A DNA stretch of 64,000 bases, from positions 1,343-65,342 of the forward strand of contig JBKJSN010000093.1 in assembly GCA_046595815.1 (NCBI GenBank), read 5' to 3'. Numbering within the stretch: the stretch's first letter is position 1; each line of letters opens with the position of its first letter. This DNA is from Mycobacteriales bacterium (GTDB taxonomy: Bacteria; Actinomycetota; Actinomycetes; Mycobacteriales; SCTD01). Position numbers and translations under genes: made by a program. The notes under the pieces are model-generated. The model saw nothing but the letters and a program-made list of their open reading frames with translations. It was not told the origin of the DNA and did no database searches. Positions 1-59,022 of the stretch are shown here, piece after piece.

Positions 1-694
1 CGAGCAGCCCGGCCTGGACGAGCGTGAACACCACGCGGCCGGCCTCGAACAGCGTGAAGCCGCACTCCCTGGCCAGGTCGGTCAGGCTGCGGATGCCGTC
101 GACGCGCGACAGCAGCGACCACGCGTCGGCGTCGACCTCGAGCTCGCTGTCGGAGGTGCCGGCGGCGGACAGGACGGGGACGGCGTCGGGGCCGTGAACG
201 GTCTGTGCGATCTGCGCCCAGGTGGAGGCGCGAGCCTCGAGCGAGGCCAGCAGGTCCTCGACCGTGACGGGCGGGGCGACGTCCTCGCGCGTGCGCTCGT
301 TCACGCGGAACTTCCAGCTGCCGGCCCGCCAGGGCAGCAGGGCCGACATCGACTCGCGGAGCTGCTCGTCGACGAACGCCTCGACGACCGTCTGGTCGAC
401 GTAGCCCAGGTGGACCAGCAGCTCGCCGAGGCGCCAGCCCTGCAGCTCCGTGCGCTGAGCCTCCATCGCCTCGGCGAGGGCCTCCGGTGCCAGGTCTCCC
501 GACGACACGAGCCGGGCGCCGAGCCGGGGGCGGTTGCCCGGGACGAGCGCGGCGTACACCCGGCCGGCGCGCAGGTAGGCCTTCGCGGTCTGGCCCGCGG
601 GGTCCACGATGTGCAGGCAGCCGGTGGCATCGCCACCGGCGAGCTCGCGCAGGACGTCCGCGGGACTCCTCGAGGTCAGGTCGCCCTTGAGCAC
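1..694 (-). CDS. DUF4388 (PatA_N-like) domain protein, 3' end outside window
   Basis: Own translation from GTG at 694: MLKGDLTSRSPADVLRELAGGDATGCLHI...RLGARLVSSG...RLGELLVHLGYV...; GGAAGG RBS upstream; frame open to window edge. Confidence 0.8.
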   Translation of the reverse strand, partial: MLKGDLTSRSPADVLRELAGGDATGCLHIVDPAGQTAKAYLRAGRVYAALVPGNRPRLGARLVSSGDLAPEALAEAMEAQRTELQGWRLGELLVHLGYVDQTVVEAFVDEQLRESMSALLPWRAGSWKFRVNERTREDVAPPVTVEDLLASLEARASTWAQIAQTVHGPDAVPVLSAAGTSDSELEVDADAWSLLSRVDGIRSLTDLARECGFTLFEAGRVVFTLVQAGLL

Positions 695-743: not shown

Positions 744-772
744 GCATCGGCAGGAGGGGCTCCGACGTTGAG
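744..772 (-). promoter_or_regulatory. putative sigma28/WhiG-type promoter of the DUF4388 gene
   Basis: Minus strand reads CTCAA-N16-GCCGATGC, about 50 nt before the start codon. Confidence 0.6.
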
Positions 773-857: not shown

Positions 858-1442
858 GTGAGCGTCGACAGCACCACGCCGCAGGGCAACCGCCGGATCG
901 ACCGCGTGCTGGCCGAGGACTTCCTCGACGGCCTGCGCGAGGTGCCGCTCAGCGAGCTGCGCGAGCTGCGTGGCGAGGCCGAGCAGGAGGAGGTGGACCT
1001 GTCCTACCTGCGCCGGATGGTCCAGGGCCGGCTCGACGTGCTGCGCGCCGAGCTCAACCGCCGCGACGGCACCAGCAGTGCCACCCTGGTCGACGGCCTG
1101 GCCGAGATCCTGGCCGACGAGCCCCGCAGCCCGGCCCGCGGCTCGGGCCGGCACACCACCGTCGAGCCGTCGCGCGCCGACAGCCACCGGCGCTACCTCG
1201 AGGCGCTCGTCGCCGACGTGGGGCTGTCCGACGTCGGGGCCCGCTCCACCGACGAGCTCGCGCACGCGATGCGCACGCTGTCGCAGGAGGAGGCCGGCCT
1301 GTCGGGCAAGCGGCGCGCGGTCCAGAGCGTCATGGACGCGTGCAGCGCCGAGGTCACCCGCCGCTACCGCGACGGCGAGGCCGACGCCGCGACGCTGCTC
1401 GCGGAGCAGCCCACGGGTGACCAGCCGACCCGAGAGCAGTGA
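858..1442 (+). CDS. rsiG: anti-sigma factor RsiG (AmfC family), twin c-di-GMP motif
   Basis: GNRRIDRVL N-terminus; two exact E-X3-S-X2-R-X3-Q-X3-D motifs (EVDLSYLRRMVQGRLD, EAGLSGKRRAVQSVMD); RRYRDGEA C-terminus. Confidence 0.9.
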   Translation: MSVDSTTPQGNRRIDRVLAEDFLDGLREVPLSELRELRGEAEQEEVDLSYLRRMVQGRLDVLRAELNRRDGTSSATLVDGLAEILADEPRSPARGSGRHTTVEPSRADSHRRYLEALVADVGLSDVGARSTDELAHAMRTLSQEEAGLSGKRRAVQSVMDACSAEVTRRYRDGEADAATLLAEQPTGDQPTREQ

Positions 1443-7178: not shown

Positions 7179-7190
7179 CCTGACCGGTGG

Positions 7191-8023: not shown

Positions 8024-8054
8024 CGGCCGGCGCGACCCAGGCCCCGTCCTGCGC

Positions 8055-8870: not shown

Positions 8871-8909
8871 CCGCTGGAGTCTGCCTGCTCACCGCCCCGT
8901 CCACGTGAG

Positions 8910-9647: not shown

Positions 9648-9738
9648 GGGACCCAGTCAACCCCCGGGAAGCGCGGGCCACCGGGCGGGGTTGGGTCCGG
9701 TCAGGGCAGACTCCTGCCGGAAGAGGAGGGTGCGATCC

Positions 9739-11010
9739 ATGAGCTCGAACGCATCGGTCACCAGCGTCCACCCGCGGCGGGTGGCGGTCCTGTCGGTCCA
9801 CACCTCGCCGCTGGAGCAGCCCGGCACCGGTGACGCCGGCGGCATGAACGTCTACGTCGTCGAGACCTCCAAGCGCCTGGCCGCCCTCGGGGTCGAGGTC
9901 GAGATCTTCACGCGGGCGACCTCCAGCGAGCTGCCGCCGGTCGTCGAGCTCGCTGCCGGCGTCACCGTCCGGCACCTGACGGCGGGGCCGTTCGAGGGGC
10001 TGAGCAAGGAGGACCTGCCGGCCCAGCTCTGCGCGCTGACCTCCGGGGTGCTGCGGGCCGAGGCCGCGCACGACCCGGGCTGGTACGACGTCGTGCACTC
10101 CCACTACTGGCTCTCGGGCCAGGTCGGCTGGCTGGCCACGGAGCGCTGGGACGTGCCGCTGGTCCACTCCGCCCACACTCTTGCGAAGGTCAAGAACCTC
10201 GCGCTGGCCGAGGGCGACACCCCCGAGCCGCTGCGTCGGGTGGTGGGTGAGCAGCAGGTGGTGGATGCGGCCGACCGGCTGGTGGCCAACACCGCGCAGG
10301 AGGCCCGCGACCTGGTGCAGCTCTACGGCGCGCAGGCCGAGCGGGTCGTCACGGTCGCGCCAGGCGTGGACCTCGAGCACTTCCGTCCCGGCGAGGCCTC
10401 CGGTGCCCGCACCCGCCTGGGCGTCCCGCCTGATGCTGTCCTGTTGCTGTTCGTCGGGCGCCTGCAGCCGCTGAAGGCGCCCGACGTCCTGCTCCGCGCC
10501 GCCCAGCGGCTCATCGAGCAGGACCCCTCCCTCCGCGATCGCGTGGTCGTTGCCGTCGTCGGGGGGCCCAGTGGCTCCGGGTGCGCCCACCCCGAGTACC
10601 TCACGGACCTCGCTGCCTCGCTGGATGTGGCCGTCCGCTTCGAGCCGCCGGCAGCGCCGGACCGGCTCCGCGACTGGTATGTCGCCGCCGACCTCGTCGC
10701 CGTCCCCTCGCACAACGAGTCCTTCGGCCTGGTCGCGCTGGAGGCGCAGGCGTGTGGCACCCCCGTGGTCGCGACCCGGGTCGGGGGCCTCACCACCACC
10801 GTCCGGGACGGCGTGAGCGGGCTGCTCGTGCACGGCCACGGCACCGACGCGTGGGCCGCAGCGCTCCGGCGCGGTCTGCAGGAGCGGTCGCTGCTCGCGA
10901 TCGAGGCTCCGGCGCACGCGGCCGGCTTCTCCTGGGACCGCACCGCGGCCGGGCTGCTCACGGCGTACCGCGAGGCCCTTGCCCCTGCTCGCGTGGCCAT
11001 CGGGACATGA
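9739..11010 (+). CDS. mshA: D-inositol-3-phosphate glycosyltransferase
   Basis: [47 protein letters not shown]; followed by ybjN and gpmA. Confidence 0.95.
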
Positions 11011-11492
11011 GTGCTGCCGGCGAGGTCATCCGGTCCGTGCTCGAGGAGTCCGAGCTGGACTTCGCCGAGCCGCACCCGGAGCAGTTCTTCGTCAAGCTGC
11101 CCGGCACGAACAAGCTCTTCACCAACTGCTGGCTCGTCGTCGGGCAGCACGGGCTGCTCGTCGAGGCCTTCGTGTGCCGCAAGCCGGATGAGAACCACGA
11201 CGAGTTCCACTCCTGGCTGCTGCGCCGCAACAGCAAGACCTTCGCCGTCTCCTTCGCGATCGACTCCTCCGGCGACGTCTACCTCGTCGGTCGGCTGCCG
11301 CTGTCCTGCGTCACCGTCGAGGACGTCGACCGGCTGCTCGGGGCGGTGCTGGAGTACTCCGATGAGTCCTTCAACACGCTCTTGGAGATCGGCTTCGCGA
11401 CGTCGATCAAGAAGGAATGGGCCTGGCGCCTCAAGCGAGGCGAGTCGACGGCGAACCTCCAGGCGTTCGCCCGGTTCGCCTCTGCTGATTAG
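11007..11492 (+). CDS. YbjN domain protein
   Basis: [44 protein letters not shown] overlap with mshA. Confidence 0.85.
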
Positions 11493-11502
11493 ATCTCCTT
11501 CC

Positions 11503-12246
11503 ATGGCAACCCTTGTGCTGCTCCGTCACGGCGAGAGCGCGTGGAACTCCAAGAACCTGTTCACCGGCTGGGTCGACGTCGACCTCACGCCGCTGGGCGA
11601 GGACCAGGCGCGCTCGGGCGGTCGGCTGCTGCGTGAGACGGGGCTGTTGCCCACGGTCGTGCACACCTCGCTGCTGACCCGCGCGATCCGCACCTCGACG
11701 CTCGCTCTCGAGGAGTGCCGGCGCTCGTGGATCCCGGTGCGTCGCCACTGGCGCCTCAACGAGCGGCACTACGGCGCCCTCCAGGGCAAGGACAAGAAGC
11801 AGACCCTGGAGACCTACGGCGAGGAGCAGTTCAAGCTCTGGCGCCGGTCGTACGACGTTCCGCCCCCGCCGATCGAGGCCGGCTCGGAGTGGGACAACTC
11901 CTCCGACGTCCGCTATGCCCGGCTCGCTCCGGGTCTCGTCCCGCTGACGGAGTGCCTGTCCGACGTGGTCGACCGCATGCTGCCCTACTGGTACGACGCG
12001 ATCGTCCCCGACCTTCGGGCCGACGAGACCGTGCTGGTGGCGGCACACGGCAACTCGCTGCGCGCCCTCGTCATGCACCTCGACGGCCTGTCCCGCGAGC
12101 AGGTCGTCGACCTGAACATCCCGACGGGTCAACCGCTGCGCTACGACCTCGACGCCCAGTTGCGCCCCGTCGTACCCGGTGGGGAGTACCTCGACCCGGA
12201 GGCTGCTGCTGCCGCCGCTGCCGCCGTGGCGAACCAGGGTCGCTGA
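11503..12246 (+). CDS. gpmA: 2,3-bisphosphoglycerate-dependent phosphoglycerate mutase
   Basis: [46 protein letters not shown]. Confidence 0.95.
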
Positions 12247-12269
12247 CCGTCGCCCGTAGCCTGGACGAC

Positions 12270-13502
12270 ATGGATCACGCCAGCCTGCGCGCGGCCTTCG
12301 CGCGCCGCCTCTCGCACCTGTACGCCGAAGAGGTGCCGGCCTACGCCACGCTGGTCGAGGTCAGCCGAGCCGTCAACGCCGACGTCGCGGCCGCCCTCGG
12401 GTCCGATGCCGAGCGCCTGGGCTCGATCGAGCGGGTGACCGAGGAGCGGCACGGGGCGATCCGGGTCGGCTCGCTCGCCGAGCTCCGTCAGGTGGCGCAG
12501 GTCTTCGCCGGGTTCGGGATGGAGCCGGTCGGCTTCTACGACCTGCGCGACGCGCGTGGCGCGATCCCGGTCATCAGCACCGGCTTCCGGGCGACGAGCC
12601 CGGAAGAGCTGGAGCGGTCGCCGTTCCGGATGTTCTGCTCGCTGCTCGAGCCGGCCGACCGGCGCTTCTTCGACGCCGACCTGGCCGCCGAGGTCGAGGC
12701 CTTCGTCGCCCGCCGCAGCCTGTTCCCGGACGAGCTGCTCTCCCTCGGCGCTCGCTCCGAGGCATCCGGAGGGCTGGAGGGCGCGGACGCTGAACGGTTC
12801 CTGGACCTGGCCACAGCCGCCTTCGCGCTGTCGCCGGAGCCGGTCGACCGGGCTTGGTACCAGCGGCTGGAGGCGGTGTCCTCGGTCGCGGCGGACATCG
12901 CCGGTGTGACCTCGACCCACCTGAACCACCTCACGCCCCGGGTGCTCGACATCGACGAGCTCTACCGCCGCATGACCGCGCGGGGGGTCGAGATGACCCC
13001 CTCCATCCAGGGCCCGCCGCGCTGGGACGGGCCCGACGTGCTGCTGCGGCAGACCTCCTTCCGTGCCCTCGCCGAGCCGCGGTCCTTCCGTGAGGCTGAC
13101 GGGTCCGTCGTACCCGGGGATCTGAAGGTGCGCTTCGGCGAGGTGGAGTGCCGCGGCATCGCCCTCACCCCGGCAGGGATGGAGCTCTACCAGGACCTCG
13201 TCGGCAAGGACGCGGCGGACTGGGCGCTGAAGGTGCCGGGCACCGAGCAGGGGCTGCGCGAGGAGGGCCTGGCGTGGTTCCGGACCGACGGCACGCCGAT
13301 CGTCTACGAGGACTTCCTGCCGCGGTCGGCCGCCGGCATCTTCCGCTCGAACCTCACCGCTTCCGGCAGCCGCGACGACCAGGCCACGGGGGTCGCGCGC
13401 GATCAGGCCTGGATGGCCGAGCAGCTGGGCAGGGTCGTGCACGACCCGCAGGACCTGTACGCCGAGCAGGCTGGCCTGCCGACCGAGGGACGCGGGCGAT
13501 GA
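12270..13502 (+). CDS. DUF1338 / YdcJ-type 2-oxoadipate dioxygenase-decarboxylase
   Basis: ERHGAIR, PVGFYDL, HLNHLTPRVLDID, LLRQTSF.AL.E, RFGEVE, YEDFLP.SAAGIF. Confidence 0.85.
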   Translation: MDHASLRAAFARRLSHLYAEEVPAYATLVEVSRAVNADVAAALGSDAERLGSIERVTEERHGAIRVGSLAELRQVAQVFAGFGMEPVGFYDLRDARGAIPVISTGFRATSPEELERSPFRMFCSLLEPADRRFFDADLAAEVEAFVARRSLFPDELLSLGARSEASGGLEGADAERFLDLATAAFALSPEPVDRAWYQRLEAVSSVAADIAGVTSTHLNHLTPRVLDIDELYRRMTARGVEMTPSIQGPPRWDGPDVLLRQTSFRALAEPRSFREADGSVVPGDLKVRFGEVECRGIALTPAGMELYQDLVGKDAADWALKVPGTEQGLREEGLAWFRTDGTPIVYEDFLPRSAAGIFRSNLTASGSRDDQATGVARDQAWMAEQLGRVVHDPQDLYAEQAGLPTEGRGR

Positions 13503-14152
13503 GGCGGGTCCTCGCCAGCGCCGTCCTGGGGGTCGGCCTGGTGCTGGCGGGCAGCGCCGTCGCCGCACAGCAGCCGGTGGTCGTCGCGAACTTCTCCTTC
13601 GACGACGCCTCGCCCGGCGACGACACGGTCGTGGTCAACGTCGGCGACCAGATCAAGTTCGTCTTCCCCGAGGCGATCCAGCACTCTGCGACGGTGGATG
13701 GCCTGTTCGACTCGGAGCCACAAAGCGGGGGCGAGACCTGGACGACCAAGACCCTCACCAAGCCCGGCACCTACACGCTCTACTGCACGGTCCACAAGGC
13801 CTCCCGCCACTCCGCGACCCTGCTGGTCCGCGGCTCGACCACGAGCCCCCCTCCGAAGCCCTCGCCGACGAAGACGGCCACCGCGACAAGTGGGCCCACG
13901 GCCGCAGCCACGGCGTCGCCGTCGGCCTCGACTGCACCCACCGCTTCGACGACGGCCGCAGCCAGCGGGTCGCCGACGGCGAGCCCCTCGGGCGACGTGA
14001 CGCCCAGTGCGGACGCCTCCGCCGGAGCGCAGGACGTTGCCACCACGCCCGCGGGCGGGTCCGGAGGCTCGAGCAGGCTCCCGCTGGTCCTGCTGTCGGT
14101 AGTCCTGGCCGCTGCGGCGGTCTACACCGTCATCCGAGCGCGACGCGGCTAG
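13499..14152 (+). CDS. exported cupredoxin-domain protein with Pro/Thr/Ser linker and C-terminal membrane anchor
   Basis: Signal peptide; [26 protein letters not shown]; hydrophobic tail followed by RARRG. Confidence 0.8.
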
Positions 14153-19426: not shown

Positions 19427-20176
19427 TCAGGCGGAGCTGACGGCCACGACCTGGCCGGGTCGCGTGGGCACGACGCCCGCCGACTCGAGGCTGAGGCCGA
19501 AGCCAGCCGTCCTGTCGTAGGGGAGCACCAGCTGGTGTGCCTCTCCGACGGTCCCTGGTTGGGTGGCGCGGAGCGAGCCGACCAGGGTCATCTCTCCCTC
19601 ACGCGGGAGCTGCCACAGCACGTAGACCTTGTTGGCCGACGGCGGTCGCAACGTGGTCGACAGCAACTGCACCTTTCCGTCCCGCACCAGCAGCGTGGCC
19701 TTGTCCTGCAGGTTCACCACGTGGCAGCCAGGCGAGGAGGTGCACGCCGACAGCGCCAGCTGCTGCGGGGTCTGCGCTGGTCCCGACTGGGCGGCGAGGT
19801 AGGCCGCTCCGGCACCAAGCACGAGTACGGCGGCCGCGGCGGCGCTGACCAGGCGAGGCGCCCGCCGGCGGGCACGCACCTCGTCCAGCGAGGTGACCGG
19901 AGCAGGGGTCATGCCGGCGCCGCCGTCCTCCGCGCCCCTCGCCGCTGACGTCGGCGGCAAGATCCCGGCGCGGATGCGCTCCCAGCTCGGCGCTTGGTCC
20001 TCGGGGTTCACGAGGGTGCCGAGCCGGGCGGCGACGAGAGCGTGGTCCGCCAGCACGTCCGGGCAGCGCTCGCAGGTGGCCAGGTGGGCGAGGAACGCCG
20101 CCTCGTCCTCCGGCTCAAGGGCGCTCAGGGCGTGGCCAGCGGCAAGCTCCTCCCAGTGCTCGTGCACCTCAGTCAT
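19427..20176 (-). CDS. anti-sigma factor RskA-type with ZAS motif (copy 1)
   Basis: H...ALEP.D...F..HL..C..C; TM helix; YVLW, FGLSLE..G..PT.P. Confidence 0.85.
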   Translation of the reverse strand: MTEVHEHWEELAAGHALSALEPEDEAAFLAHLATCERCPDVLADHALVAARLGTLVNPEDQAPSWERIRAGILPPTSAARGAEDGGAGMTPAPVTSLDEVRARRRAPRLVSAAAAAVLVLGAGAAYLAAQSGPAQTPQQLALSACTSSPGCHVVNLQDKATLLVRDGKVQLLSTTLRPPSANKVYVLWQLPREGEMTLVGSLRATQPGTVGEAHQLVLPYDRTAGFGLSLESAGVVPTRPGQVVAVSSA

Positions 20177-20753
20177 GCAGCTCGCCCCCGCCCTCTCCCA
20201 AGTCCGGCCCCAGCTCCTCGCGCAGCTTGCGCAGGGCAGCCAGCGTCCGGCTCTTCACCGTGCCGAGCGGCATCCCTGTCATCTCGGCGATCTCCCGTTG
20301 CGTGTAGCCGCCGTAATAGGCGATCAGAAGGACCTCGCGCTGCTCAGGGGGCAGGATGCTCAGCGCCTCCCGGGTCCGCTCGGCGCGAAGGGTCGCCCAC
20401 GCCTCGTCGTCGGGCCCCGGGCTGGCCGAGACGAGATCGAGCATCACCTGGTCTTCGCTGAGGCGCCGACGACGGGTGCTCTCGCGACGAACCGCGTCGA
20501 CGGCCTTGTGGTGGGTGACCGAGAGCAGCCACGTGCTGACAGCGCCTCGCGCCGGGTCGTAGCCGGTCCCCTGCCACAGCGCGAGGAAGACCTGCTGCAC
20601 AACGTCCTCCGCCAGCTGCGGGTCGTTGAGGATGCGCCGGGCGAGTGCGTAGCAGGGCCGTCCGTAGCGCCCGTAGATGATCTCCAGCGCGCCCTCGTCA
20701 CCGGAGGCAAGGCGACGGATGAGCTCGCCATCCTCCAACGCGGTCGCGGACAT
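20169..20753 (-). CDS. ECF sigma factor, SigK-like
   Basis: AEDVVQQVFLALW, YDPARG.V.TWLL...HHKAVD.VR, AYYGGYTQREIA...PLGTVKSR; an in-frame upstream start at 20807/20810 is also possible. Confidence 0.9.
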   Translation of the reverse strand: MSATALEDGELIRRLASGDEGALEIIYGRYGRPCYALARRILNDPQLAEDVVQQVFLALWQGTGYDPARGAVSTWLLSVTHHKAVDAVRRESTRRRRLSEDQVMLDLVSASPGPDDEAWATLRAERTREALSILPPEQREVLLIAYYGGYTQREIAEMTGMPLGTVKSRTLAALRKLREELGPDLGEGGGELHD

Positions 20754-20806
20754 GGGCCCACTGTGCCAGACGTCCTGAGCGGTCACGACCGGCGGGAGCG
20801 TGGTCA

Positions 20807-21583
20807 TCACGTCTCCCCGGCCAGGAGGGGTGTCTGGATGGTGCGTACCGGCACGGCGCGCCCCTTCTCTCTCGTGACCATGAAGGCCTTGGCGGTGTCA
20901 GCGGATGCGAGCTCGAGATCGTTGATGACGCTCACGCGCGCTGACGTGACGTCGAAGGCGCCGACCGCGTGGACGTCCCCGAAGGTCGTCTTCACCCACA
21001 GCACGTAGACGCTGGTGCGCGCGTCGTTCGGGGTCACCCCGGACATGACAAGCGAGAGGGTGCGCCCGTTGACGATGACCGCGCCGCGGCCGCCGTCACC
21101 CTGGAGGTCGATCTTCCGCGTACCCGGGACGAGGAGTGATGCGACGGTCGAGCCGAGCCGGTCGGCGGCCAGCTGAGCCTGCTGCTCCCGGGGGCTCGGT
21201 CCCCGGCCGACCGACAGCACGAGCGCCAGTACGACGACCGCGGCGGCCGCGCTGACGAGGGAGGTCATGAGCCGCACGGAGCGGCGTTGGGGCCTGGTGG
21301 CCCGAAGGCCGGGACGCAGAGGCGCCGGCGGTTCGAGCTGTCGGCGCGAGGAGACCGCGCCGGAGCGGATCCCGTGAAGGAGGGAGGCAGGAGGGGCTTC
21401 GGTCGTCACGGCCCACGCGAGGTGGGCCAGGGTGTCGCGGTGGCCGGCAACGGCGCGCTCGCAGACCGGACACGTCGACAGGTGGTCCAGGAACAGCAGC
21501 TCGTCGTCAGGCTCCAGCGCGGACAGGGCCCACCCGGCTGCGAGCACGTCGTAGTCCGCGTGCCTGCGCTCGCGGTCGCTCAT
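20807..21583 (-). CDS. anti-sigma factor RskA-type with ZAS motif (copy 2)
   Basis: H..YDVLAAGWALSALEPDDE..FLDHLSTCPVC; TM helix; YVLW, FMVTRE. Confidence 0.85.
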   Translation of the reverse strand: MSDRERRHADYDVLAAGWALSALEPDDELLFLDHLSTCPVCERAVAGHRDTLAHLAWAVTTEAPPASLLHGIRSGAVSSRRQLEPPAPLRPGLRATRPQRRSVRLMTSLVSAAAAVVVLALVLSVGRGPSPREQQAQLAADRLGSTVASLLVPGTRKIDLQGDGGRGAVIVNGRTLSLVMSGVTPNDARTSVYVLWVKTTFGDVHAVGAFDVTSARVSVINDLELASADTAKAFMVTREKGRAVPVRTIQTPLLAGET

Positions 21584-21627
21584 CACGCCGCCTCGGGCGG
21601 CCGGCTGACCGCGCTCGCTGTCCTCAC
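21583..21627 (-). other. leaderless 14-codon mini-ORF (MRTASAVSRPPEAA) coupled to anti-sigma copy 2
   Basis: GTG exactly 8 nt after the CGAA -10, as in the two sister promoters; TGA overlaps the anti-sigma start (GTGATG). Confidence 0.4.
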
Positions 21628-21635
21628 GCAGTGCA

Positions 21636-21662
21636 TTCGCGCGCCGAGCGTCTCCGGATCGG
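21636..21662 (-). promoter_or_regulatory. SigK-type promoter 1
   Basis: CCGATCC-N16-CGAA. Confidence 0.6.
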
Positions 21663-21673
21663 TGCCGGGAGCC

Positions 21674-22309
21674 TCAGTGGGAGGCATGAGGTGCTCCGTC
21701 GTGCTCGTGCTGGAGCCGGCAGCTGAAGTAGGCCGTGACGCCACGGTCGACCCCGCGAGAGTCGATGTCACCGGTCAGGATCGGCGCCGACGGGCACGGC
21801 GCCACCGAGGAGCCGTGCTCATGGGACGGGCTGGCGAGGGCCGTGCCGCTCACCGAGCCGCAGAGCAGCAGCACGGCCGCGAAGCCGAGAGCCCTGCCCC
21901 GTCCCAGCGGCGCGGACAGGGCGCGGGGGCGGCGAGAGAGCAGCAGCGCACCGAGGGCAACAGGCACCTCGAGGGCACAGCACAGCAGGTCCCTCGTCCC
22001 CACGGGCTCCGCGGTGAAGGCCGCCGGTCCGAGGGGCAGACCGGTCGTCCTGCTCACCAGGTACGTCCCGATGAACACCAGTGAGACCAAGCCTCCCAGG
22101 CGTAGGGCCACTCGCGAGTCCCGTGTCGCGACGAGGACGGCCCACAGCACCTGGAAGACACCGGCAGCGGCGAAGGCGACGCCCAGCGGCCGCCACTGCT
22201 GGTAGTGCTCGCCGACGAAGGACAGGTGAACGGCTCCAGCACCTAGTGAGGCCGCAGCGAGGACGATTCGAGCTGCCGTGCGCTGCGGCAGGCCGGAGAG
22301 AGTCTTCAT
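21674..22309 (-). CDS. multi-TM membrane protein with His motifs
   Basis: GAVHL....EHY..W, SRTTGLPLGP; C-terminal HEH..C...C..HEHDGAPHASH. Confidence 0.75.
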   Translation of the reverse strand: MKTLSGLPQRTAARIVLAAASLGAGAVHLSFVGEHYQQWRPLGVAFAAAGVFQVLWAVLVATRDSRVALRLGGLVSLVFIGTYLVSRTTGLPLGPAAFTAEPVGTRDLLCCALEVPVALGALLLSRRPRALSAPLGRGRALGFAAVLLLCGSVSGTALASPSHEHGSSVAPCPSAPILTGDIDSRGVDRGVTAYFSCRLQHEHDGAPHASH

Positions 22310-22317
22310 GCCAGGCG

Positions 22318-22344
22318 TTCGCGCCGGTGAGCTTCTCGGACTTC
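22318..22344 (-). promoter_or_regulatory. SigK-type promoter 2 (leaderless)
   Basis: GAAGTCC-N16-CGAA-N8-ATG(22309). Confidence 0.55.
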
Positions 22345-22356
22345 CCTGGCGCTGTG

Positions 22357-22383
22357 CCGAACCGAATGGCCGGGCGGCGCGAA
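22357..22383 (+). promoter_or_regulatory. SigK-type promoter 3 (leaderless)
   Basis: CCGAACC-N16-CGAA-N8-ATG(22392). Confidence 0.6.
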
Positions 22384-22391
22384 AGCAAGGC

Positions 22392-22817
22392 ATGACCCGA
22401 CACCGAGCCACTACCTCCAGCCGCGTGTACTCAGCAGCGCTCGTCACGGCGGGCCTCCTGGCTCTGACGGCCTGCAGCTCGAGCAGTGGCGAGGCGGACA
22501 GCACCGACGGCGGCACGAGCGCCGACGGCGTCAGCGTGGACACCGGGCTGCTCGCCTTCGACCCCAAGTCCGTCACCGTCACCAAGGGCCAGACGGTGAC
22601 CTGGGTCGGCGGGGACAACATCAGCCACATCCTCGTGCAGGGCTCCTACGAGGTGGGTGCGGATGGCCTCCGCACGAAGGAGAGCGACGACAAGGCCTTC
22701 AACCTCACGCTCAACCGCAAGGGCCAGCGCGTGACCCACACCTACAGCACGTCCGGGACGTTCACCTACTTCTGCACGATCCACAAGGGGATGAACGGCA
22801 CCGTCGTCGTCTCCTGA
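22392..22817 (+). CDS. cupredoxin (plastocyanin/azurin-like) lipoprotein
   Basis: Lipobox LTAC; AFDP..VTV..G.TVTW, SHIL, YFCTIHKGMNG type-1 copper ligands. Confidence 0.9.
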   Translation: MTRHRATTSSRVYSAALVTAGLLALTACSSSSGEADSTDGGTSADGVSVDTGLLAFDPKSVTVTKGQTVTWVGGDNISHILVQGSYEVGADGLRTKESDDKAFNLTLNRKGQRVTHTYSTSGTFTYFCTIHKGMNGTVVVS

Positions 22818-22896
22818 TCGACCCCCTCACCCCACAAGCCAGGCCGCTCGTCCGAGCGCGCCCTGACCCTGCCCACTCCCACGAAAGAAGCTCACC

Positions 22897-24135
22897 ATGC
22901 AACGCACACCGGTCAGGATCGCGGCCGTCGCACTGGGTATCGCTCTCTCAGCGACCGCCTGCGGCTCCAGCAACGACACCAAGAGCGCGTCAGCCGGCTC
23001 CCCGTCGGCGTCCGCCACCACGGGCACGGTCGGTCTGGAGGCCACGACGACCAAGGCCGTGACACTGCGTGCCGGTCTGACGTACCTCCTCGAGGAGCAC
23101 GTCCAGCTCGCCGGCATCGCGACGGGCACTGCCCTGGCGAAGAAGGGCAACCTCAAGGACCCGGCCGTGAAGGCCGCCGTCGCGGCTCTCGACGCCAACT
23201 CCGTCGCGCTGAGCAAGGCTGTGGGCTCGGCCTACCCGCAGGCGGAGGCGCCGTTCCTCGCCTCCTGGCGCCAGCACATCGGGTTCTTCGTCGACTACAC
23301 GCTCGGCAAGGCCACGAAGGACAAGGCGATGACCGCGAAGGCCATCAAGGCCCTGGACGGCTACCGCACCAGCTTCGGCCAGCTCATCAACTCCGTCGTG
23401 CCCGAGCTGCCTGCCGACGCTGTCGCCAACGAGCTCAAGCCGCACGTCGCAAGCCTCTTCGCCGCCATCGACGCCCAGGTCGCGGGGAGCCCCAAGCAGT
23501 TCGCCCTGCTCCAGGAGGCGGCCGGCCACATGCCCGGCACCGCGGCGATCCTCGCCAGCGGCATCGCGACGAACCTCAAGCTCGGGAAGACCGACACGGG
23601 CGCCGGCGACCTCCGCGCGGGGCTGACCGCCCTGCTCACCCAGCACGTCTACACGGCCGGCATCGCGATCAACACGGCCGTCGCCAAGGGCGGGAACCTG
23701 AAGGACCCGATGGTGGTCGCCGCCGTCAACGCCCTCGACGCCAACTCCGTCGCGCTGAGCAAGGCTGTCGGCGCGGCGTACCCGCAGGCGGAGGCGCCGT
23801 TCCTTGCGTCCTGGCGCCAGCACATCGGCTTCTTCGTCGACTACACGCTCGGCAAGGCGACGATGAGCGACGCGAAGGTCACGAAGGCGAAGGCCGACCT
23901 GGACGGCTACCGGACCAGCTTCGGTCAGCTCATCAACTCGGTCGTGCCCGAGCTGCCTGCTGACGCCGTCGCCAACGAGCTCACGCCGCACGTCGCGAGC
24001 CTGTTCACCGCGATCGACGCCGTCGTAGCCGGTGACCCCAGTGTCTTCACCAAGCTGCAGGCAGCCGCTGGTCACATGCCCGGTACAGCCGCGACGCTGG
24101 CCGGCGGGATCTCGCAGAACCTCAAGCTCAGCTAG
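22897..24135 (+). CDS. lipoprotein with two tandem helical His-bearing domains (family often labelled 'copper amine oxidase-like')
   Basis: Lipobox ATAC; 182-aa repeat, each copy with LL..HV, WRQHIGFFVDY, PHV, AGHM. Confidence 0.75.
   Translation: MQRTPVRIAAVALGIALSATACGSSNDTKSASAGSPSASATTGTVGLEATTTKAVTLRAGLTYLLEEHVQLAGIATGTALAKKGNLKDPAVKAAVAALDANSVALSKAVGSAYPQAEAPFLASWRQHIGFFVDYTLGKATKDKAMTAKAIKALDGYRTSFGQLINSVVPELPADAVANELKPHVASLFAAIDAQVAGSPKQFALLQEAAGHMPGTAAILASGIATNLKLGKTDTGAGDLRAGLTALLTQHVYTAGIAINTAVAKGGNLKDPMVVAAVNALDANSVALSKAVGAAYPQAEAPFLASWRQHIGFFVDYTLGKATMSDAKVTKAKADLDGYRTSFGQLINSVVPELPADAVANELTPHVASLFTAIDAVVAGDPSVFTKLQAAAGHMPGTAATLAGGISQNLKLS
23065..24129 (+). repeat. intragenic tandem duplication, period 546 nt
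   Basis: GACGCCAACTCCGTCGCGCTGAGCAAGGCTGT at 23191 and 23737, with many other near-identical blocks. Confidence 0.9.
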
Positions 24136-24152
24136 CCTTAGCACCAGCTAAG

Positions 24153-24188
24153 AGGTGGGGAGGGTCACGACCGTGACCCTCCCCACCT
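24153..24188. terminator. long perfect hairpin (terminator or mRNA stabiliser)
   Basis: AGGTGGGGAGGGTCACG-ac-CGTGACCCTCCCCACCT. Confidence 0.7.
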
Positions 24189-24213
24189 GTCTGAGTACCC
24201 CAAGGGGGGCACC

Positions 24214-24789
24214 GTGAGGGCTCACGGCGAAGGCTCGCGGACGCAGCCTGCAAGTTGGGCGAGGGTCACGGCGGCCTTGGTACTCGGGGCAGGGATCGCC
24301 GTCGCTCTCGGGGGAGTAGGACGGGCCCTGACTCCGGAGTACAGGTTGCTACCGGGTTTCGGCTTCACCGACAACCTCACCTTCAAGGCCTGGCTCGCCA
24401 GCGGCGTCCTGCTCCTCGCCGGTGGCCAGCTCCTCACGGCGCTCTGGATGTTCGGCCGCCTCCCGCTCGTCCACCGGCGGCCTGCGTGGTTGGCGCGCAC
24501 GCACCGGTCACTCGGCGCCACCGCCTTCCTGCTCAGCCTCCCCGTTGCCGCTTGCTGCCTGCTCGCCTACGGCTTCGCTCCCGCACCCCTCTCCGGCCGA
24601 ACCCTCGCGCACTCGGTGCTGGGGTGTTTGTTCTACGGGACCTTCGCCGTCAAGGTCCTGGCTGTCCGCTCAACCCGGGTCTCGCCCTGGGTTCTGCCCG
24701 TCGTGGGCGGGAGCCTGTTCACGCTCGTCGTTCTCCTCTGGATGACAAGCGCCCTGTGGTTCTTCCAGGTCACCGGAATCCACCTGTGA
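24214..24789 (+). CDS. DUF6529-like membrane protein (possible di-His haem b binding)
   Basis: KAWLAS...QLLTALWM.GRL, HRSLG, PVA..CL..YGF, HSVLGCLFYG.FAVKVL, WVLPVVGG.LF. Confidence 0.75.
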   Translation: MRAHGEGSRTQPASWARVTAALVLGAGIAVALGGVGRALTPEYRLLPGFGFTDNLTFKAWLASGVLLLAGGQLLTALWMFGRLPLVHRRPAWLARTHRSLGATAFLLSLPVAACCLLAYGFAPAPLSGRTLAHSVLGCLFYGTFAVKVLAVRSTRVSPWVLPVVGGSLFTLVVLLWMTSALWFFQVTGIHL

Positions 24790-33949: not shown

Positions 33950-33990
33950 GTGATCCCCTTGTAGCGGTTCTGTCACCGAAGTTGGTGACG

Positions 33991-34019
33991 ATCTCGGCAT
34001 TCCGGACGTTCCGCTTGAA
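33991..34019 (-). promoter_or_regulatory. putative sigma28/WhiG-type promoter of the surface-protein gene
   Basis: TTCAA-N16-GCCGAGAT. Confidence 0.55.
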
Positions 34020-34060: not shown

Positions 34061-34088
34061 TCAACGAGCGTTCCCAGCCTAGGTGACG
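34061..34088 (-). promoter_or_regulatory. putative sigma-BldN-type promoter of the surface-protein gene
   Basis: CGTCAC-N16-CGTTGA. Confidence 0.7.
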
Positions 34089-34258: not shown

Positions 34259-35482
34259 CTAGGGCTTGACGGCGGGCAGGGACTGCGGCGCGGGCTGCAG
34301 CGTCGGCAGGCCCGTGGGCTGCGGCAGCAGCGTCGGCAAGATCGTGGGCAGGATCGTCGGCCACACGCCGGGGGACGGAGAGGTCGTCGGCGTCGGGGTC
34401 GGCGTCGGCTCGCTGGTGGGTTCGGTCGTCCGTTCCGGGGTGGGCTCGTCGGTGGGGGACGTCGTCGGACCAGGCGTGGGCTGCGGGGTCGGGCCCGGCT
34501 CGCCGCAGGTGCACGGCGGGACACCGTTGTCGTCGGGCTGCTCGGGGCTGGCGCTCGCACCCGGCGTGGGACCGGGCTCCACAGGAAGGGTCGGGCCGCC
34601 GGTGGCCGGGTCGCATGACTGGCCGCAGGTGCCCAGGTTGAGCAGCTCGACGGCGGTGCTGCCGACCTCCTCCACCAGGTCCAGCGACTGCTGGGCCGCG
34701 AGGGCCGTGCCCGCGGGCAGCTGCGGGATGAGCGTGGCGAGGCGGGCTTGCTGCTCGAGCGAGAACGAGCTCAGGACGCGCAGCGGAGCCGTGCGGCCGG
34801 TGTTCCGGTAGACGCTCTCGAGCAGCGCGCGGCCCTTGCGGGTCTCGGTGTCGAAGTCGGCCAGGGTGTCGTTGATGCGATCCTGCCGCGAACCGGAGGC
34901 CAGGCTGCCAGCAGCCAGCGTGCCCGTGCCGGCGCCGCTCAGGGCGAGCTCGCCGTCCCCCTGCGCCAGCGCTCGCACCTCGCGCAGTCGGGTGGCGGCG
35001 AACTCCAGGTGCTTGCCGCCGCGGGCGGTGTCGTTGTCGGCGAGCTGCAGCTGCAGGCCCTCGCTGACGCGCTTGAGGCTGTAGAAGGGCTGACCGGGCA
35101 GGGAGCGTGAGGAGGCCACGCCCATGCCGGTGATCGCGACGACGCCGGCCATCGCACCGGAGGCGAGCGCCATGCGCCGTTGCGCCGTCCAGCTCTGCGA
35201 CCACGCGCGCACACGCTCGAGTGACCCAGCACTCGCGGGCACGGCGGCAGCCGCGGGAGCGGCCTGGGCTCCGTGGACCTCCGCCACGGCGAGGAGCCGC
35301 TGACGCAGCGCGATCCGGAACTCCGGGCGAAGGGAGGCCTTGTCGTCCAGAGCGGGAGAGATGACCCGGAGCCGGGTGGCGAGCGTCGCGAGCCCAGCCG
35401 TCCTGGTCGTCGGACCGGCGACAGCCCCCTCAAGCAGACGCGCGAGCTCTTCGGCTCGGGCGCGGTTGCCCAGGGGGTTCAT
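34259..35482 (-). CDS. rsbN: DUF5667 anti-sigma factor RsbN-like
   Basis: RAEELARLL, PEFR..LRQRL, TM, SLPGQPFYSLKR..E, L.FA.TRL.E; Pro/Thr tail; directly downstream of bldN. Confidence 0.8.
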   Translation of the reverse strand: MNPLGNRARAEELARLLEGAVAGPTTRTAGLATLATRLRVISPALDDKASLRPEFRIALRQRLLAVAEVHGAQAAPAAAAVPASAGSLERVRAWSQSWTAQRRMALASGAMAGVVAITGMGVASSRSLPGQPFYSLKRVSEGLQLQLADNDTARGGKHLEFAATRLREVRALAQGDGELALSGAGTGTLAAGSLASGSRQDRINDTLADFDTETRKGRALLESVYRNTGRTAPLRVLSSFSLEQQARLATLIPQLPAGTALAAQQSLDLVEEVGSTAVELLNLGTCGQSCDPATGGPTLPVEPGPTPGASASPEQPDDNGVPPCTCGEPGPTPQPTPGPTTSPTDEPTPERTTEPTSEPTPTPTPTTSPSPGVWPTILPTILPTLLPQPTGLPTLQPAPQSLPAVKP

Positions 35483-35555: not shown

Positions 35556-35584
35556 CCAACGAGCGGAGGGCCACTGGGGTGACG
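35556..35584 (-). promoter_or_regulatory. putative sigma-BldN-type promoter of rsbN
   Basis: CGTCAC-N17-CGTTGG. Confidence 0.6.
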
Positions 35585-35627: not shown

Positions 35628-36272
35628 TCACAGCTCCACTCCCTCGGGCAGGAGCCGCCCCAGGGTGCGGATGGCGCGGTATTGCAGCGCCTTGATCGCT
35701 CCATCGTTCTTGCCCATGATCTGCGCCGTCTCGGCGACCGACAGGCCCTGGAGGAAGCGCAGCACGATGCACTCCTGCTGCTCGGTGTTGAGCTGCTTGA
35801 CCGCCTGGAGCAGGACCTTGTTGGTCATCCCCTCCAGGACCGCACGCTCCGGGCCCTCGATGACGGGGGCCGAGCCGGAGTCGGTGACGTCGTCGGTGGT
35901 CAGCTCGAGCCGGTAGCGGCCGCTCTTGTAGTGGTCGGCCACGAGGTTGCGGGCGATCGTGGTGAACCACGCCCCGACGTCACGGCCCTGCCAGGTGAAG
36001 GTGCTGATCCGGCGCAGCGCCCGCAGGAACGTCTCGGAGGTCAGGTCCTCGGCGACGGCCGAGCTGGCGACGCGGTAGGCGATGTAGCGGTAGACCTGAT
36101 CGACGTACCGGTCGTAGAGCAAGCCAAAGGCATCGGCGTCCCCGGCCTGCGCGCGCTCGACCAGGGCAAAGGTGACAGCGCTCTCGCCCTCCGGGGCGGC
36201 GGTTTCGACCCGGTCGTGGTCGGGTACGGCGGGGGTTGGGACAGCGGCATCGCTGGTCACTGCCCTGGTCAC
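35628..36272 (-). CDS. bldN: ECF sigma factor BldN family
   Basis: LVERAQAGDADAFGLLYDRY, AEDLTSETFLRALRRISTFTWQGRD.GAW..TIARNLVADH.KS, QQEC..LRFLQGLSVAETA..MGKN.GAIK.LQYRA; frame open further upstream so start uncertain. Confidence 0.9.
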   Translation of the reverse strand: MTRAVTSDAAVPTPAVPDHDRVETAAPEGESAVTFALVERAQAGDADAFGLLYDRYVDQVYRYIAYRVASSAVAEDLTSETFLRALRRISTFTWQGRDVGAWFTTIARNLVADHYKSGRYRLELTTDDVTDSGSAPVIEGPERAVLEGMTNKVLLQAVKQLNTEQQECIVLRFLQGLSVAETAQIMGKNDGAIKALQYRAIRTLGRLLPEGVEL

Positions 36273-36421
36273 CTGGCGTCCCTGGGCACGGCCGCTCCCG
36301 CAGGGTGCGCGGGCAGGCGGGCGTGCATGGGACTCCGTTCGGGCTCCGGGGGAAGTCGTACGAGCCGGTGCACGCATCGTACGGGCGCGCCCCGGCTCGC
36401 GAAGGCGTTCTGACACGTTGT

Positions 36422-36450
36422 GTCTCGGCACGTACGGCGGGCTGCCTGAG
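36422..36450 (-). promoter_or_regulatory. putative sigma28/WhiG-type promoter of bldN
   Basis: CTCAG-N16-GCCGAGAC. Confidence 0.55.
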
Positions 36451-55474: not shown

Positions 55475-56081
55475 GAGGGCGCCGTGGGTCGTCGGGGTCA
55501 GCGGTGCCAGCGGTACGCCGTACGCCAAGGCCGTGCTCGGCGCGCTGCTCAAGGCGGGGCACGCGATCGACCTCGTCGTCAGCCGGGCTGCCCGGCTCAC
55601 CCTGCTCGACGAGACCGGGATCGCCTGGCACGACGACACTTCGAGCTTCGCTCAGTGGGTGGGTGCAGAGGGCGACGTGCGCTTCTGGGGCCCCGCCGAC
55701 CTGGCCGCCGGGCCCTCGAGTGGCAGCTATCAGACGCGCGGGATGGTCGTGGTCCCGGCGAGCACCTCAGCGGTCGCGGGGATCGCGCTGGGGCTGAGCA
55801 AGGACCTGCTCCAGCGGGCGGCGAGCGTCACGCTCAAGGAGCGGCGGCCGCTGGTCGTGGTCCCACGTGAGACGCCGCTGGACCGGCCCACCTTGCAGCA
55901 CCTGCTGGCGCTGCATGACGCAGGCTCCGTGGTGCTCCCGGCGAGCCCTGGGTTCTACGGCGGCGCGGACTCGGTCCAGCGGCTCGTCGACTTCGTGGCG
56001 GGCAAGGTGCTGGATGTGCTGGGGGTGGAGCACGACCTGTTGACCCGTTGGAAGGGCGAGCTAGGAGCAGGTCAGGCCTGA
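55464..56081 (+). CDS. ubiX: UbiX family flavin prenyltransferase
   Basis: WVVGVSGASG, PSSGS, LLQRAA.VTLKERR, PRETP, PASPGFY. Confidence 0.95.
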   Translation: MTQGRAPWVVGVSGASGTPYAKAVLGALLKAGHAIDLVVSRAARLTLLDETGIAWHDDTSSFAQWVGAEGDVRFWGPADLAAGPSSGSYQTRGMVVVPASTSAVAGIALGLSKDLLQRAASVTLKERRPLVVVPRETPLDRPTLQHLLALHDAGSVVLPASPGFYGGADSVQRLVDFVAGKVLDVLGVEHDLLTRWKGELGAGQA

Positions 56082-56287
56082 CGCGCAGGCGGGTCCCCGC
56101 GGAGCAGGGCCCGGACCTCGGACTCGCGGAAGCGGCGGTGGCCGCCTGGCGTGCGGATGCTGTTGATCCGCCCGGCCGAAGCCCAGCGCGTCACCGTCTT
56201 CGGGTCGACGCGGAACAGCGCGGCCACCTCGCCAGGCGTCAGCAGCCGGTCTCGCTGCGGCGGTCGCGCGTGCGTCTCGTCAGCCAT
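56072..56287 (-). CDS. BldC-family transcriptional regulator (possibly a paralog rather than the BldC ortholog)
   Basis: LLTPGEVAALFRVDPKTVTRWA.AG...IRTPGGHRRFRE.EVRALL; GGAGG RBS. Confidence 0.9.
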   Translation of the reverse strand: MADETHARPPQRDRLLTPGEVAALFRVDPKTVTRWASAGRINSIRTPGGHRRFRESEVRALLRGDPPARQA

Positions 56288-56333: not shown

Positions 56334-56361
56334 TCAACGACGCGTTGGGTTGATGGTGACG
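56334..56361 (-). promoter_or_regulatory. putative sigma-BldN-type promoter of the bldC-family gene
   Basis: CGTCAC-N16-CGTTGA, same boxes and spacing as 34061-34088. Confidence 0.7.
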
Positions 56362-57276: not shown

Positions 57277-59022
57277 GTGATCCGTCGCCCCCTCCTCGCC
57301 ACGACCGCCGCCGCAGCTGTCCTTGCGCTGATCGCCGCATCTGGCTCAGCCTCTGCCGCCTCGACCACCTCTGCCGCCGGACGTGCCACCACGAGCGTGA
57401 CCGTGCTGGACCTTTCCGTCGCGGGGCACGAGCTGAGCCTCGTCGACCTTGCACTGAGCAGCGACACGATCGCCTCTCCGCGGGTGTCGTCGATCGCCCT
57501 GACCCCGGTCACGGTGGACGGCACGGGCTACGGCCGCCAGACGGTCAACCAGTCGACGTCGCCGAAGACCGTCGGCGCCTTGAGCACGCCCTCGGCGGTG
57601 GGCCCGTTCGCGGCCCTCACCAGCCCAGCAGTCGAGCTGACTGCGACGAGTACGCCGTCCAACCGGGCGGGCGCCGAATCGCTCGGCACGGTCAAGGTGC
57701 TGGGTCTGCCAGTGAAGCTGGTGGGTGAGCTGACGACCTCCACCTCCGTCACCGCGACTGCAGGGGCCGCTGGCGTCACGACGATCCGCATCGACGACCT
57801 GGCCCTGCCCAGCATCGCCGACCTTCTCGGTGCGCTCGGTCTGGACCTTTCCGCCCTTCCGCTCGACACCCTCGATGAGCTGATCAACTCCCTGGAGCTC
57901 ATCACCTCGGCGCTGGTGGCCGCTGAGAATGCCGTAGACGACGCGCAGGCCGCGGTCGATGCCGCCACGACAGACCTGGCGACCAAGACCGCTGACCTTG
58001 CCGCGGCGGAGGGGGCCCTCACGGCCGCTGAGGCCGCGTTCGCGACCGCCACGACCACGGTGGACGCCCTGCTGGCCACAGCCGGGATCGCCGACGTTGC
58101 GACGTACGAGGCGCTGTCCCAGCTGCTCAAGGATGCTGCCGAGCTCCTGGCTCCCGGCTTGGCCGCAGCAGTCACCGACTACCTCGCCGCGGAGGCGGCG
58201 GTCGCTGCGGCGACGGGGGTTGTCGCCACCGCCCAACTGGCCTTGGACACCGCCCAAGCGCTGCTCGCCAGCCTGACCTCCACGCTGACCTCGGCGATCG
58301 CGACCCTGCGCACGCTGTTGACGGCTCGCCTGGATGCGACACCGCTCGTGAGCCTTGACAGCCTTGAGGTCAGCACGAAGGCCTCCGCCACGAGCGCGAG
58401 CAAGGGCGGCCAGCACGCGACGGTCGTCGGCGGGACGGTGAAGGGCCTGGAGGTCCTGGGCGTCGACGTGCTCGCGGAGGTGACAGGCAGCCGGACCCTG
58501 GACCTGGCCGGGGTCGCCTCCTCGACCATCGCCGCGGTGAACAGCCTGATGGCCGAGGTCACCGGCACCTTGTCCGACGTGCTCTCGAACGTGCCCGGCT
58601 TCCCGGTGCTCGACGTACCCGCTCCCAAGGTGGGCCTGCTCACGAAGTCGACCTCGACCTCTATCAGCGGCGGCTTCGGCCGGGCGTCCGCGTCGATCAG
58701 CGGGCTGACGATCACGATCCCGGGCATCACCCTGCCGACCTCGCTGGCCCTGCCCGGCGCTGCTGGCCTCCCCGCGATGACCAGCGTCACGCAGGTGGCT
58801 GGGCAACTGACCAGCGCACCGATCACTGCACGCGTACTGACCCTGCGCGACCAGGCTGCGTTCCGACCAGGGGTCATCGGCAGCGGAACCTCGGCGGGCG
58901 GGCCGTCCGGTAGCACCGGTGGCATCCCGAACACGGGCCTCCCGGTCGGCGTCGCTGCCCTGTCGCTCCTGCTCTTGGGGGGCGCCCTGGCCGTGCGTCG
59001 CCAGCTGGCCATGGTCGGCTGA
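57277..59022 (+). CDS. secreted A/T/L/S-rich surface protein with coiled-coil and LPXTG-like anchor
   Basis: Signal peptide; Ala-rich heptad region; IPNTG + hydrophobic helix + RR. Confidence 0.8.
   Translation: MIRRPLLATTAAAAVLALIAASGSASAASTTSAAGRATTSVTVLDLSVAGHELSLVDLALSSDTIASPRVSSIALTPVTVDGTGYGRQTVNQSTSPKTVGALSTPSAVGPFAALTSPAVELTATSTPSNRAGAESLGTVKVLGLPVKLVGELTTSTSVTATAGAAGVTTIRIDDLALPSIADLLGALGLDLSALPLDTLDELINSLELITSALVAAENAVDDAQAAVDAATTDLATKTADLAAAEGALTAAEAAFATATTTVDALLATAGIADVATYEALSQLLKDAAELLAPGLAAAVTDYLAAEAAVAAATGVVATAQLALDTAQALLASLTSTLTSAIATLRTLLTARLDATPLVSLDSLEVSTKASATSASKGGQHATVVGGTVKGLEVLGVDVLAEVTGSRTLDLAGVASSTIAAVNSLMAEVTGTLSDVLSNVPGFPVLDVPAPKVGLLTKSTSTSISGGFGRASASISGLTITIPGITLPTSLALPGAAGLPAMTSVTQVAGQLTSAPITARVLTLRDQAAFRPGVIGSGTSAGGPSGSTGGIPNTGLPVGVAALSLLLLGGALAVRRQLAMVG

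Follow-up and report, generated by a model that had tools for sequence, protein, structure and literature searches.

In Streptomyces, WhiG-WhiI and BldN-BldM are reported to form independent pathways that are joined at the BldM-WhiI heterodimer (PMC4125116), RsbN keeps BldN inactive after translation (PMC6101532), and the BldN targets described are the chaplins, the rodlins, rsbN, and bldM (PMC6101532, PMC4255298, PMC4125116, PMC2375139), with the promoter consensus CGTAAC-N16-CGTTGA (PMC2375139). In Rubrobacter radiotolerans, the (RsiG)2-(c-di-GMP)2-WhiG switch governs type IV pili, and a start site is reported at only 12 of 20 consensus matches (PMC8325347). RsiG is described as binding WhiG2 via c-di-GMP (PMC8325347, PMC13595943) and as not binding WhiG1, and both paralogues are reported to be able to read similar promoters (PMC13595943). 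Lastly, Denis et al. 2026 predicted the WhiG1 and WhiG2 regulons throughout the phylum and present the control of bldM by WhiG outside Streptomyces as rewiring; the only sigma-factor clusters named in the accessible text of that source are 26 (whiG) and 127 (top hit hrdB) (PMC13595943).

The 64,000-nt stretch of Mycobacteriales DNA analysed here (the window) comes from a genus of uncultured actinobacteria and belongs to a genome with the same four regulators, of which whiI and bldM are assigned by similarity and synteny, and, unlike the parallel branches of Streptomyces, the predicted wiring is serial, with WhiG above both bldN and bldM. The locus shares with the Streptomyces BldN-RsbN system the neighbouring gene pair, promoters of the form CGT(A/C)AC-N16/17-CGTTG, rsbN as a self-target, and a surface output, and differs from it in the WhiG-type promoter at bldN, in a bldM that has a WhiG-type and no BldN-type promoter, in the absence of detected chaplins, and in predicted BldN targets that comprise an anchored protein, a sortase, bldC, and a SigH-like sigma factor. 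As reported for Rubrobacter, sigma-28-type promoters precede pil genes, the sigma factor is of the WhiG2 type, and RsiG carries the motif E-x3-S-x2-R-x3-Q-x3-D; unlike the Rubrobacter system as described, RsiG is here a twin-motif protein, the predicted targets number about 35-40, bldN forms a putative second sigma tier accompanied by bldM, and no GGDEF-motif gene has a strong site (PMC8325347). The consensus, bldM, and the pilus and chemotaxis targets match the regulons of Denis et al. 2026, in whose accessible text bldN is not named as a WhiG target, clusters of three or fewer having been filtered there (PMC13595943). A WhiG promoter at bldN was not found in the literature searched, as judged mostly by titles and the beginnings of abstracts; the WhiG-to-bldM rewiring is already published (PMC13595943), and the predicted WhiG-to-bldN connection would be the new part.

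The sigma-28-type site upstream of bldN

The preliminary description of the window had placed one bipartite motif, in sense orientation, with a 16-nt spacer and a T preceding GCCGA, upstream of three genes, and it was correct in each of these particulars: all three sites lie on the minus strand at the positions given in Table 1. The gene labels are likewise confirmed by profile matches (TIGR02952 for bldN, DUF5667 for rsbN, PF22802 twice for rsiG, and DUF4388), with the BldN-family sigma gene adjoining rsbN and 6DXO being the sole PDB match of the bldN product at E<=1e-18. The bldN site combines a -35 T(C/A)A, a 16-nt spacer, and a -10 GCCGA at less than 200 nt from the start codon, in agreement with the published WhiG consensus XT(C/A)AX-N16-GCCGA (PMC13595943), and the start site of bldN is expected near 36415.

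Table 1. Features of the window discussed in the text, with strand and supporting details.
Feature	Position	Strand	Details
DUF4388 protein with MshE-related c-di-GMP-binding motif	1..694, past window edge	-	NF053729, 38.4 vs cut-off 38
Putative sigma-28-type promoter, DUF4388 gene	744..771	-	19.3 bits; contig chimeric here, with a second congener as the probable source; orthologous site on contig C173
rsiG, twin-motif	858..1442	+	PF22802 twice; probably from second congener; copy of the bldN organism on C173
Likely assembly junction inside mshA	10092..10121	.	end of contig C173 matches exactly over 30 nt
Secreted protein, 505 aa, with sorting signal of the sortase type, a membrane segment, and a tail of basic residues	32432..33949	-	no Pfam family
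Putative sigma-28-type promoter, surface-protein gene	33991..34018	-	17.9 bits
Putative BldN-type promoter of surface-protein gene	34062..34088	-	CGTCAC-N16-CGTTG; 24/24 family loci
rsbN, anti-sigma factor gene	34259..35482	-	DUF5667; synteny with bldN
Putative BldN-type promoter of rsbN	35557..35584	-	CGTCAC-N17-CGTTG; 17/17 genus loci, 67/69 titled streptomycete loci
bldN, ECF sigma factor, 214 aa from coupled GTG	35628..36272	-	TIGR02952, 208.9 vs cut-off 206.45
Leader ORF, 19 codons, behind ribosome-binding site	36269..36328	-	stop overlaps bldN start (RTGA)
Second -10 element, housekeeping-type TAnnnT	36376..36381	-	about 40 nt downstream of sigma-28 -10
Putative sigma-28 (WhiG-type) promoter, bldN	36422..36449	-	-35 TCAG 36449-36446, 16-nt spacer, -10 GCCGAGAC 36429-36422; 18.9 bits
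bldC	56072..56287	-	NF033787, 106.4 vs cut-off 77
Putative BldN-type promoter of bldC	56335..56361	-	kept in 4/4 congeners examined

In the window alone, the bare pattern TCAN-N16-GCCGA has no significance (seven matches against a mean of 3.5, with 8 of 100 shuffles reaching seven). Throughout the genome (3.13 Mb, 89% complete, 3.7% contamination, with gene calls made in the present analysis), the same pattern in intergenic and sense position precedes 31 genes, against 6-11 for each other spacer from 12 to 21 nt. A weight matrix was built without iteration from 32 sites on other contigs, leaving out the contig of the window; it finds 24 upstream regions at >=17 bits, training sites counted among them, versus 0.3 in shuffles, and ranks the bldN site 16th of 1793 upstream regions. 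On the held-out contig, the three sites of the window take the first places among 47 upstream regions (19.3, 18.9, and 17.9 bits), the next best reaching 9.0 bits, and the score of the native bldN site is attained in 0 of 5000 shuffles of its upstream DNA. The antisense control of the genome-wide matrix scan gives a high count (11 at >=17 bits), which probably reflects upstream DNA common to divergent genes, so that shuffles and wrong spacers were taken as controls instead. WhiG-type sites with a spacer of 17 nt occur at >=15 bits in eight regions, one of them before a whiB-family gene.

The bldN site is not only enriched above background but also kept in orthologous regions. The congener sample comprises 22 genomes, of which 20 have a bldN match; 18 loci were obtained and two were dropped for too short upstream DNA. 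The site is present at >=12 bits in 14 of the 16 congeners, or 15 of 17 genus loci with the window's own, whereas the wrong-spacer and antisense controls give 0/17 genus loci at >=14 bits. Of the 15 positive loci, 15, 14, 15, and 13 agree at the successive -35 columns and 13-15 at those of TGCCGA, against 6-11 at most spacer columns. The BldN proteins of the congeners are 79-93% identical, and boxes that stay fixed around a free spacer at this level of protein divergence imply selection on the site. Thus, the sigma-28-type promoter put forward in the preliminary description is borne out as a prediction at the sequence level: a sigma28 gene is present, the motif exceeds its background frequency, and it recurs in relatives, so that none of the opposite outcomes named there was encountered. 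Conversely, the site is missing in congeners G006 (97% complete) and G010, though both have WhiG2 and RsiG. Farther away, it is found in 5 of 15 loci of other genera of the family (one further locus was dropped) and in other families of the order in 1/11 (the unpublished G030 counted as negative) and 1/44 loci. Streptomycetes have it in 0/69 titled loci and 0/20 from genus g44, 0/89 in total, and a class-wide sample carries no group signal (6/50 loci at >=12 bits; 3/50 at >=14 bits, equal to the wrong-spacer control). Several such sites, selected post hoc in other uncultured lineages, are located between pbp and bldN.

The bldN upstream region holds further candidate inputs. A housekeeping-type TAnnnT element was found by pattern search in 14 of the 15 site-bearing genus loci (at +40 to +43 in 12 and at +3 in two) and is also visible in both site-less congeners, being at least as well conserved as the sigma-28 site; no -35 partner was found for it, and a generic scan for the full sigma-70 consensus gave nothing. 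This second conserved element, together with the lack of the site in two congeners that have WhiG2 and RsiG, speaks against the sole dependence of bldN on WhiG that had been supposed, and WhiG is predicted to be one input to bldN alongside a housekeeping-type promoter. Between promoter and gene, a pattern search recognised the leader-ORF layout in 14 of 17 genus loci, those of the window and L005 being read by eye; across the genus, the ORF has 14-27 codons and its own ribosome-binding site, and its layout is conserved while its sequence is not, which suggests, as a prediction, translational coupling or control of bldN. The exact box T(C/G)AC-N5-GT(C/G)A, which we take to be that of BldD, is not found in the pattern search upstream of bldN, a gene that BldD-(c-di-GMP) represses in Streptomyces; a bldD gene with the c-di-GMP motif is present in the genome. 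A GACAC palindrome at 36412-36424 has a counterpart only in the nearest congener and was set aside. As for the protein, BldN of the window and of the two nearest relatives (L004-L006) has no N-terminal extension, and most congeners and streptomycetes carry one of 50-90 residues (L007-L021, L096, L152) with a common 'L-x-x-L-R-A-x-V'-like stretch.

Predicted WhiG-type and BldN-type targets

Among the top 41 WhiG-type targets, 29 were annotated, outside the two core genes of the contig, together with the spacer-17 and BldN targets. Among them are a pilin, ATPases of the PilB type that carry MshEN domains, another secretion ATPase, PilM, a roadblock protein, a RodZ-like protein, an MCP, hydrolases of the cell wall, and unknown proteins; the genome has a type IV pilus set, and pilA, pilB, and pilM are preceded by the same sigma-28 motif as bldN. 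The predicted WhiG-type regulon thus consists mostly of pilus and envelope genes. In contrast to published WhiG regulons, a site at >=12 bits precedes 0 of the 26 GGDEF-motif genes.

The operon that ends in bldM carries a WhiG-type site in 18 of 21 family loci, against 5/21 for the wrong-spacer control; two of the negatives have no upstream DNA and one is the unpublished G023. A BldN-type site before bldM is found in 0/21 family loci, and in streptomycetes it is present in 2/2, one of which also scores 14.5 bits at spacer 17, without the GCCGA core. In G000:C71:7217-9871 (L267), bldM closes a run with two unknown ORFs, both of which have a WhiG-type site, and the -35 region of the bldM-operon site is TCACGT in nearly all congeners. 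The PDB search identified neither BldM nor WhiI; bldM is assigned by 60% identity and synteny with streptomycete loci, and the putative whiI-like gene is labelled by similarity and position. The WhiG-type score of the latter is only 9.5 bits.

The BldN-type motif, searched genome-wide in intergenic sense position, gives 13 matches at spacer 16 against 0-5 at other spacers. Its top sites precede rsbN, bldC, the surface protein of 505 aa, a sortase whose best match (class E) is under the cut-off of that profile, a priming transferase for exopolysaccharide, a subtilase, a SigH-like sigma factor, and one unknown gene, in line with the earlier suggestion that BldN may drive a regulon of its own. 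In the congeners examined, the site is kept before the sortase gene in four and before the SigH-like gene in two. The rsbN promoter has a 17-nt spacer through the genus and most of the order, and the other BldN-type sites are one nucleotide shorter. The SigH-like gene (G000:C164:1340-2170, L269) matches the Firmicute SigH-like profile NF006148 (306 vs cut-off 208), has the BldN-type promoter with the highest score, which G011 and G020 also keep, and represents a possible third sigma tier.

The surface-protein gene unites both promoter types. Its BldN-type site is found in all 24 family loci scored (29 fetched), and its WhiG-type site reaches >=12 bits in 8 of the 24, with 0/24 for the wrong-spacer control. 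A sortase-type signal stands at the end of 21 of 22 complete proteins, and an Atlas search returned only hypothetical and choice-of-anchor clusters. The exopolysaccharide priming transferase gene also has both promoter types (spacer 15), and the two genes are predicted to close a coherent feed-forward loop. Chaplins (PF03777) were found in 0/61 family genomes, with 2/2 streptomycetes as control. A BldM-type palindrome at 33972-33989 is present in the window, is not found in 25 other family loci, and was not used; genome-wide, the BldM homodimer-type TCAC-N8-GTGA gives 16 matches at spacer 8 against 3-12 elsewhere, with divergent pairs counted twice, and such palindromes lie upstream of C173 ssgB and C115 flagellin as well as at that place in the window. 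Elsewhere in the window, another large secreted protein, likewise outside any Pfam family, is encoded near bldC (57277-59022, plus strand; conserved at 45-64% in congeners), and 19427-24789 holds an ECF sigma factor between two related anti-sigma-like genes, followed by secreted and membrane genes that are mostly missing at that place in four congeners.

WhiG paralogues, RsiG, and the mixed genome bin

The whiG/fliA gene that the preliminary description had presumed outside the window exists: contig C12 carries a FliA/WhiG match above the cut-off, whose best PDB match is 6PFJ (E 2e-91). The K-x3-G-R c-di-GMP contact is present in this C12 WhiG and in all aligned WhiG2 relatives and is absent from the WhiG1 of C106, the gene of which stands beside csrA and fliW in a genome that also has flagellar genes. 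The RsiG copies of C166 and C173 bear two c-di-GMP motifs of the form E-x3-S-x2-R-x3-Q-x3-D each, and the RsiG family is represented in 22/22 congeners. A separate single-motif RsiG-like protein (G000:C132:34181-34747) has a WhiG-type site of 14.2 bits, which makes negative feedback possible, and most congeners have a third RsiG-family match. The gating of WhiG by c-di-GMP and RsiG is predicted from the WhiG2 and RsiG genes of the genome, but the flagellar WhiG1, which is reported not to be bound by RsiG (PMC13595943), had been left out of account.

Several observations bear on which paralogue reads the bldN site. The flgB, fliS, and flgN promoters have a spacer of 15 nt, as do the flagellar promoters of G031, and the pilus/bldN class has 16 nt. 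Nine of 14 site-positive congeners, themselves 75-92% complete, gave no flagellin match, and five of these keep a WhiG1-like gene; a WhiG1-like gene and csrA in the absence of a flagellin match were recorded in G009, G015, G017, G022, G008, and G004 (L182-L187). G346 and G087 (genomes 90-99% complete) have the bldN site, one FliA/WhiG match, and no flagellin found, and G069 and G094 have a weak second FliA/WhiG match. On these grounds, WhiG2 is the more likely reader of the site. Neither promoter type was found before whiG in 13 loci (best 11.1 and 9.8 bits), so that the regulatory edge would be one-way.

The genome bin is mixed, and this affects part of the window. Contig C173 repeats the gene order of the first 10 kb of the window at 42-86% protein identity; with respect to the nearest congener, G007, the C173 copy of rsiG is 90% identical and the window copy 62%, whereas the window from mshA onward has 79-84% DNA identity to G007 over most of its length. 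Because the C173 genes are nearer to G007 and the end of C173 matches the suspected junction exactly over 30 nt, the first ~10 kb of the window, including the DUF4388 site and rsiG, probably derive from a second congener. The site at 744-771 and the rsiG of the window are thus real but probably not those of the bldN organism, having been joined to it near 10092-10121; since C173 has an equivalent rsiG and site (20.2 bits), the conclusion is unaffected by the chimera. Contigs of three DNA runs, compared over 1-14000, neither bridge nor clearly break the suspected junction. Other duplicated blocks in the bin are C160/C204, C30/C67, and C193/C198. An apparent tandem duplication of whiG (C12, C26) was set aside in favour of one putative split gene, in which C12 may have a foreign 3' half and C26 may be the true copy.

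Proposed wiring and its alternatives

The reading that we favour, and consider probable, is that a conserved sigma-28-type promoter precedes bldN, is likely read by WhiG2, and makes BldN a second tier under a pilus/envelope regulon. As the bldN promoter is of the kind that precedes pilus genes, one signal-gated WhiG likely drives both the pili and the BldN surface programme. Specifically, a fall in c-di-GMP would let RsiG free WhiG2, which would then transcribe pilA, pilB, and pilM along with further MshEN/DUF4388 genes, the operon of bldM, and bldN; upon release by RsbN, BldN would act on rsbN, bldC, and the genes of the sortase, the exopolysaccharide priming transferase, the subtilase, the SigH-like sigma, and the wall-anchored protein, and the dual promoters of the wall-anchored protein and the transferase would form the coherent feed-forward loop. 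The output would likely be a surface state, pili and then an anchored coat, not aerial hyphae. A more far-reaching version is offered tentatively and, taken as a whole, remains doubtful: a non-mycelial wiring of the Streptomyces sporulation regulators, in which c-di-GMP-gated WhiG2 would stand on top of pili, bldM, and bldN, BldN would direct a sortase-anchored coat and exopolysaccharide via the feed-forward loop and pass on to BldC and the SigH-like sigma, and a three-sigma cascade would lead to a surface-colonising state.

The promoter may instead be real but minor, with most bldN transcription starting at the housekeeping-type promoter downstream of it, RsbN as the gate, BldN targets independent of WhiG, and no working cascade. 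The presence of TAnnnT in site-bearing and site-less loci alike, the loss of the sigma-28 site in G006, G010, and 10 of 15 other family loci, and the post-translational inactivation of BldN by RsbN (PMC6101532) all fit this account, yet the conservation confined to the boxes implies selection, the TAnnnT element has no -35 partner, and the WhiG sites that occur in parallel at bldM and the surface-protein gene suggest that the design is coordinated, so that we regard it as unlikely. Distinctly unlikely, in our judgement, is the reading of the bldN site by the flagellar WhiG1, or by both paralogues, with no gating by c-di-GMP and RsiG: the 15-nt spacer of the flagellar promoters here and in G031 and the occurrence of the site in genomes with a single WhiG2-grade match, albeit ones no more than 90-99% complete, argue against it, despite a WhiG1 gene beside csrA and fliW, its retention in at least five site-bearing congeners with no flagellin match, and the overexpression phenotype that whiG of both clades is reported to give in S. 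venezuelae (PMC13595943).

The preliminary description had gone further and proposed an inverted developmental cascade, read here as WhiG and then BldN driving the formation of spores or zoospores, with the Streptomyces order reversed. The genome does contain bldC, bldM, a bldD that has the c-di-GMP motif, a whiI-like gene, one gene of the SsgA family, five of the WhiB family, and flagella, and a spacer-17 WhiG-type site precedes a whiB-family gene. Nevertheless, with a regulon made up mostly of pilus and envelope genes, no chaplins found in the 61 family genomes, and a whiI-like gene of such low score, a developmental role appears very unlikely, and as the Streptomyces branches are reported to be independent (PMC4125116), there is no order to invert: the change would be from parallel to serial. 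Lastly, a motif that arose by chance in high-GC DNA, or that some other DNA-binding protein recognises, could be imagined from the commonness of GCCGA at 70% GC and the lack of significance of the bare pattern within the window, but the spacer-specific enrichment, the held-out ranking, the box-only conservation, and the fit to the published consensus make it extremely improbable.

Under the favoured reading, with WhiG2 above bldN, the locus extends the view of two regulators that have been studied almost only in Streptomyces, as starters of separate sporulation branches. The analysis yields named promoters, two target lists, and genomes with natural loss of the site. The network would have been rewired by promoter gain and loss alone, with WhiG-type sites at bldN and bldM and a BldN-type site at bldC. 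In the more far-reaching version, the similar sites that lie between pbp and bldN in further uncultured lineages would, if true, make the serial wiring a widespread one that may predate the parallel wiring of Streptomyces. A small-genome, piliated lineage in which chaplins were not found and both regulators are predicted to act in series points to possible roles of WhiG and BldN beyond mycelial development.
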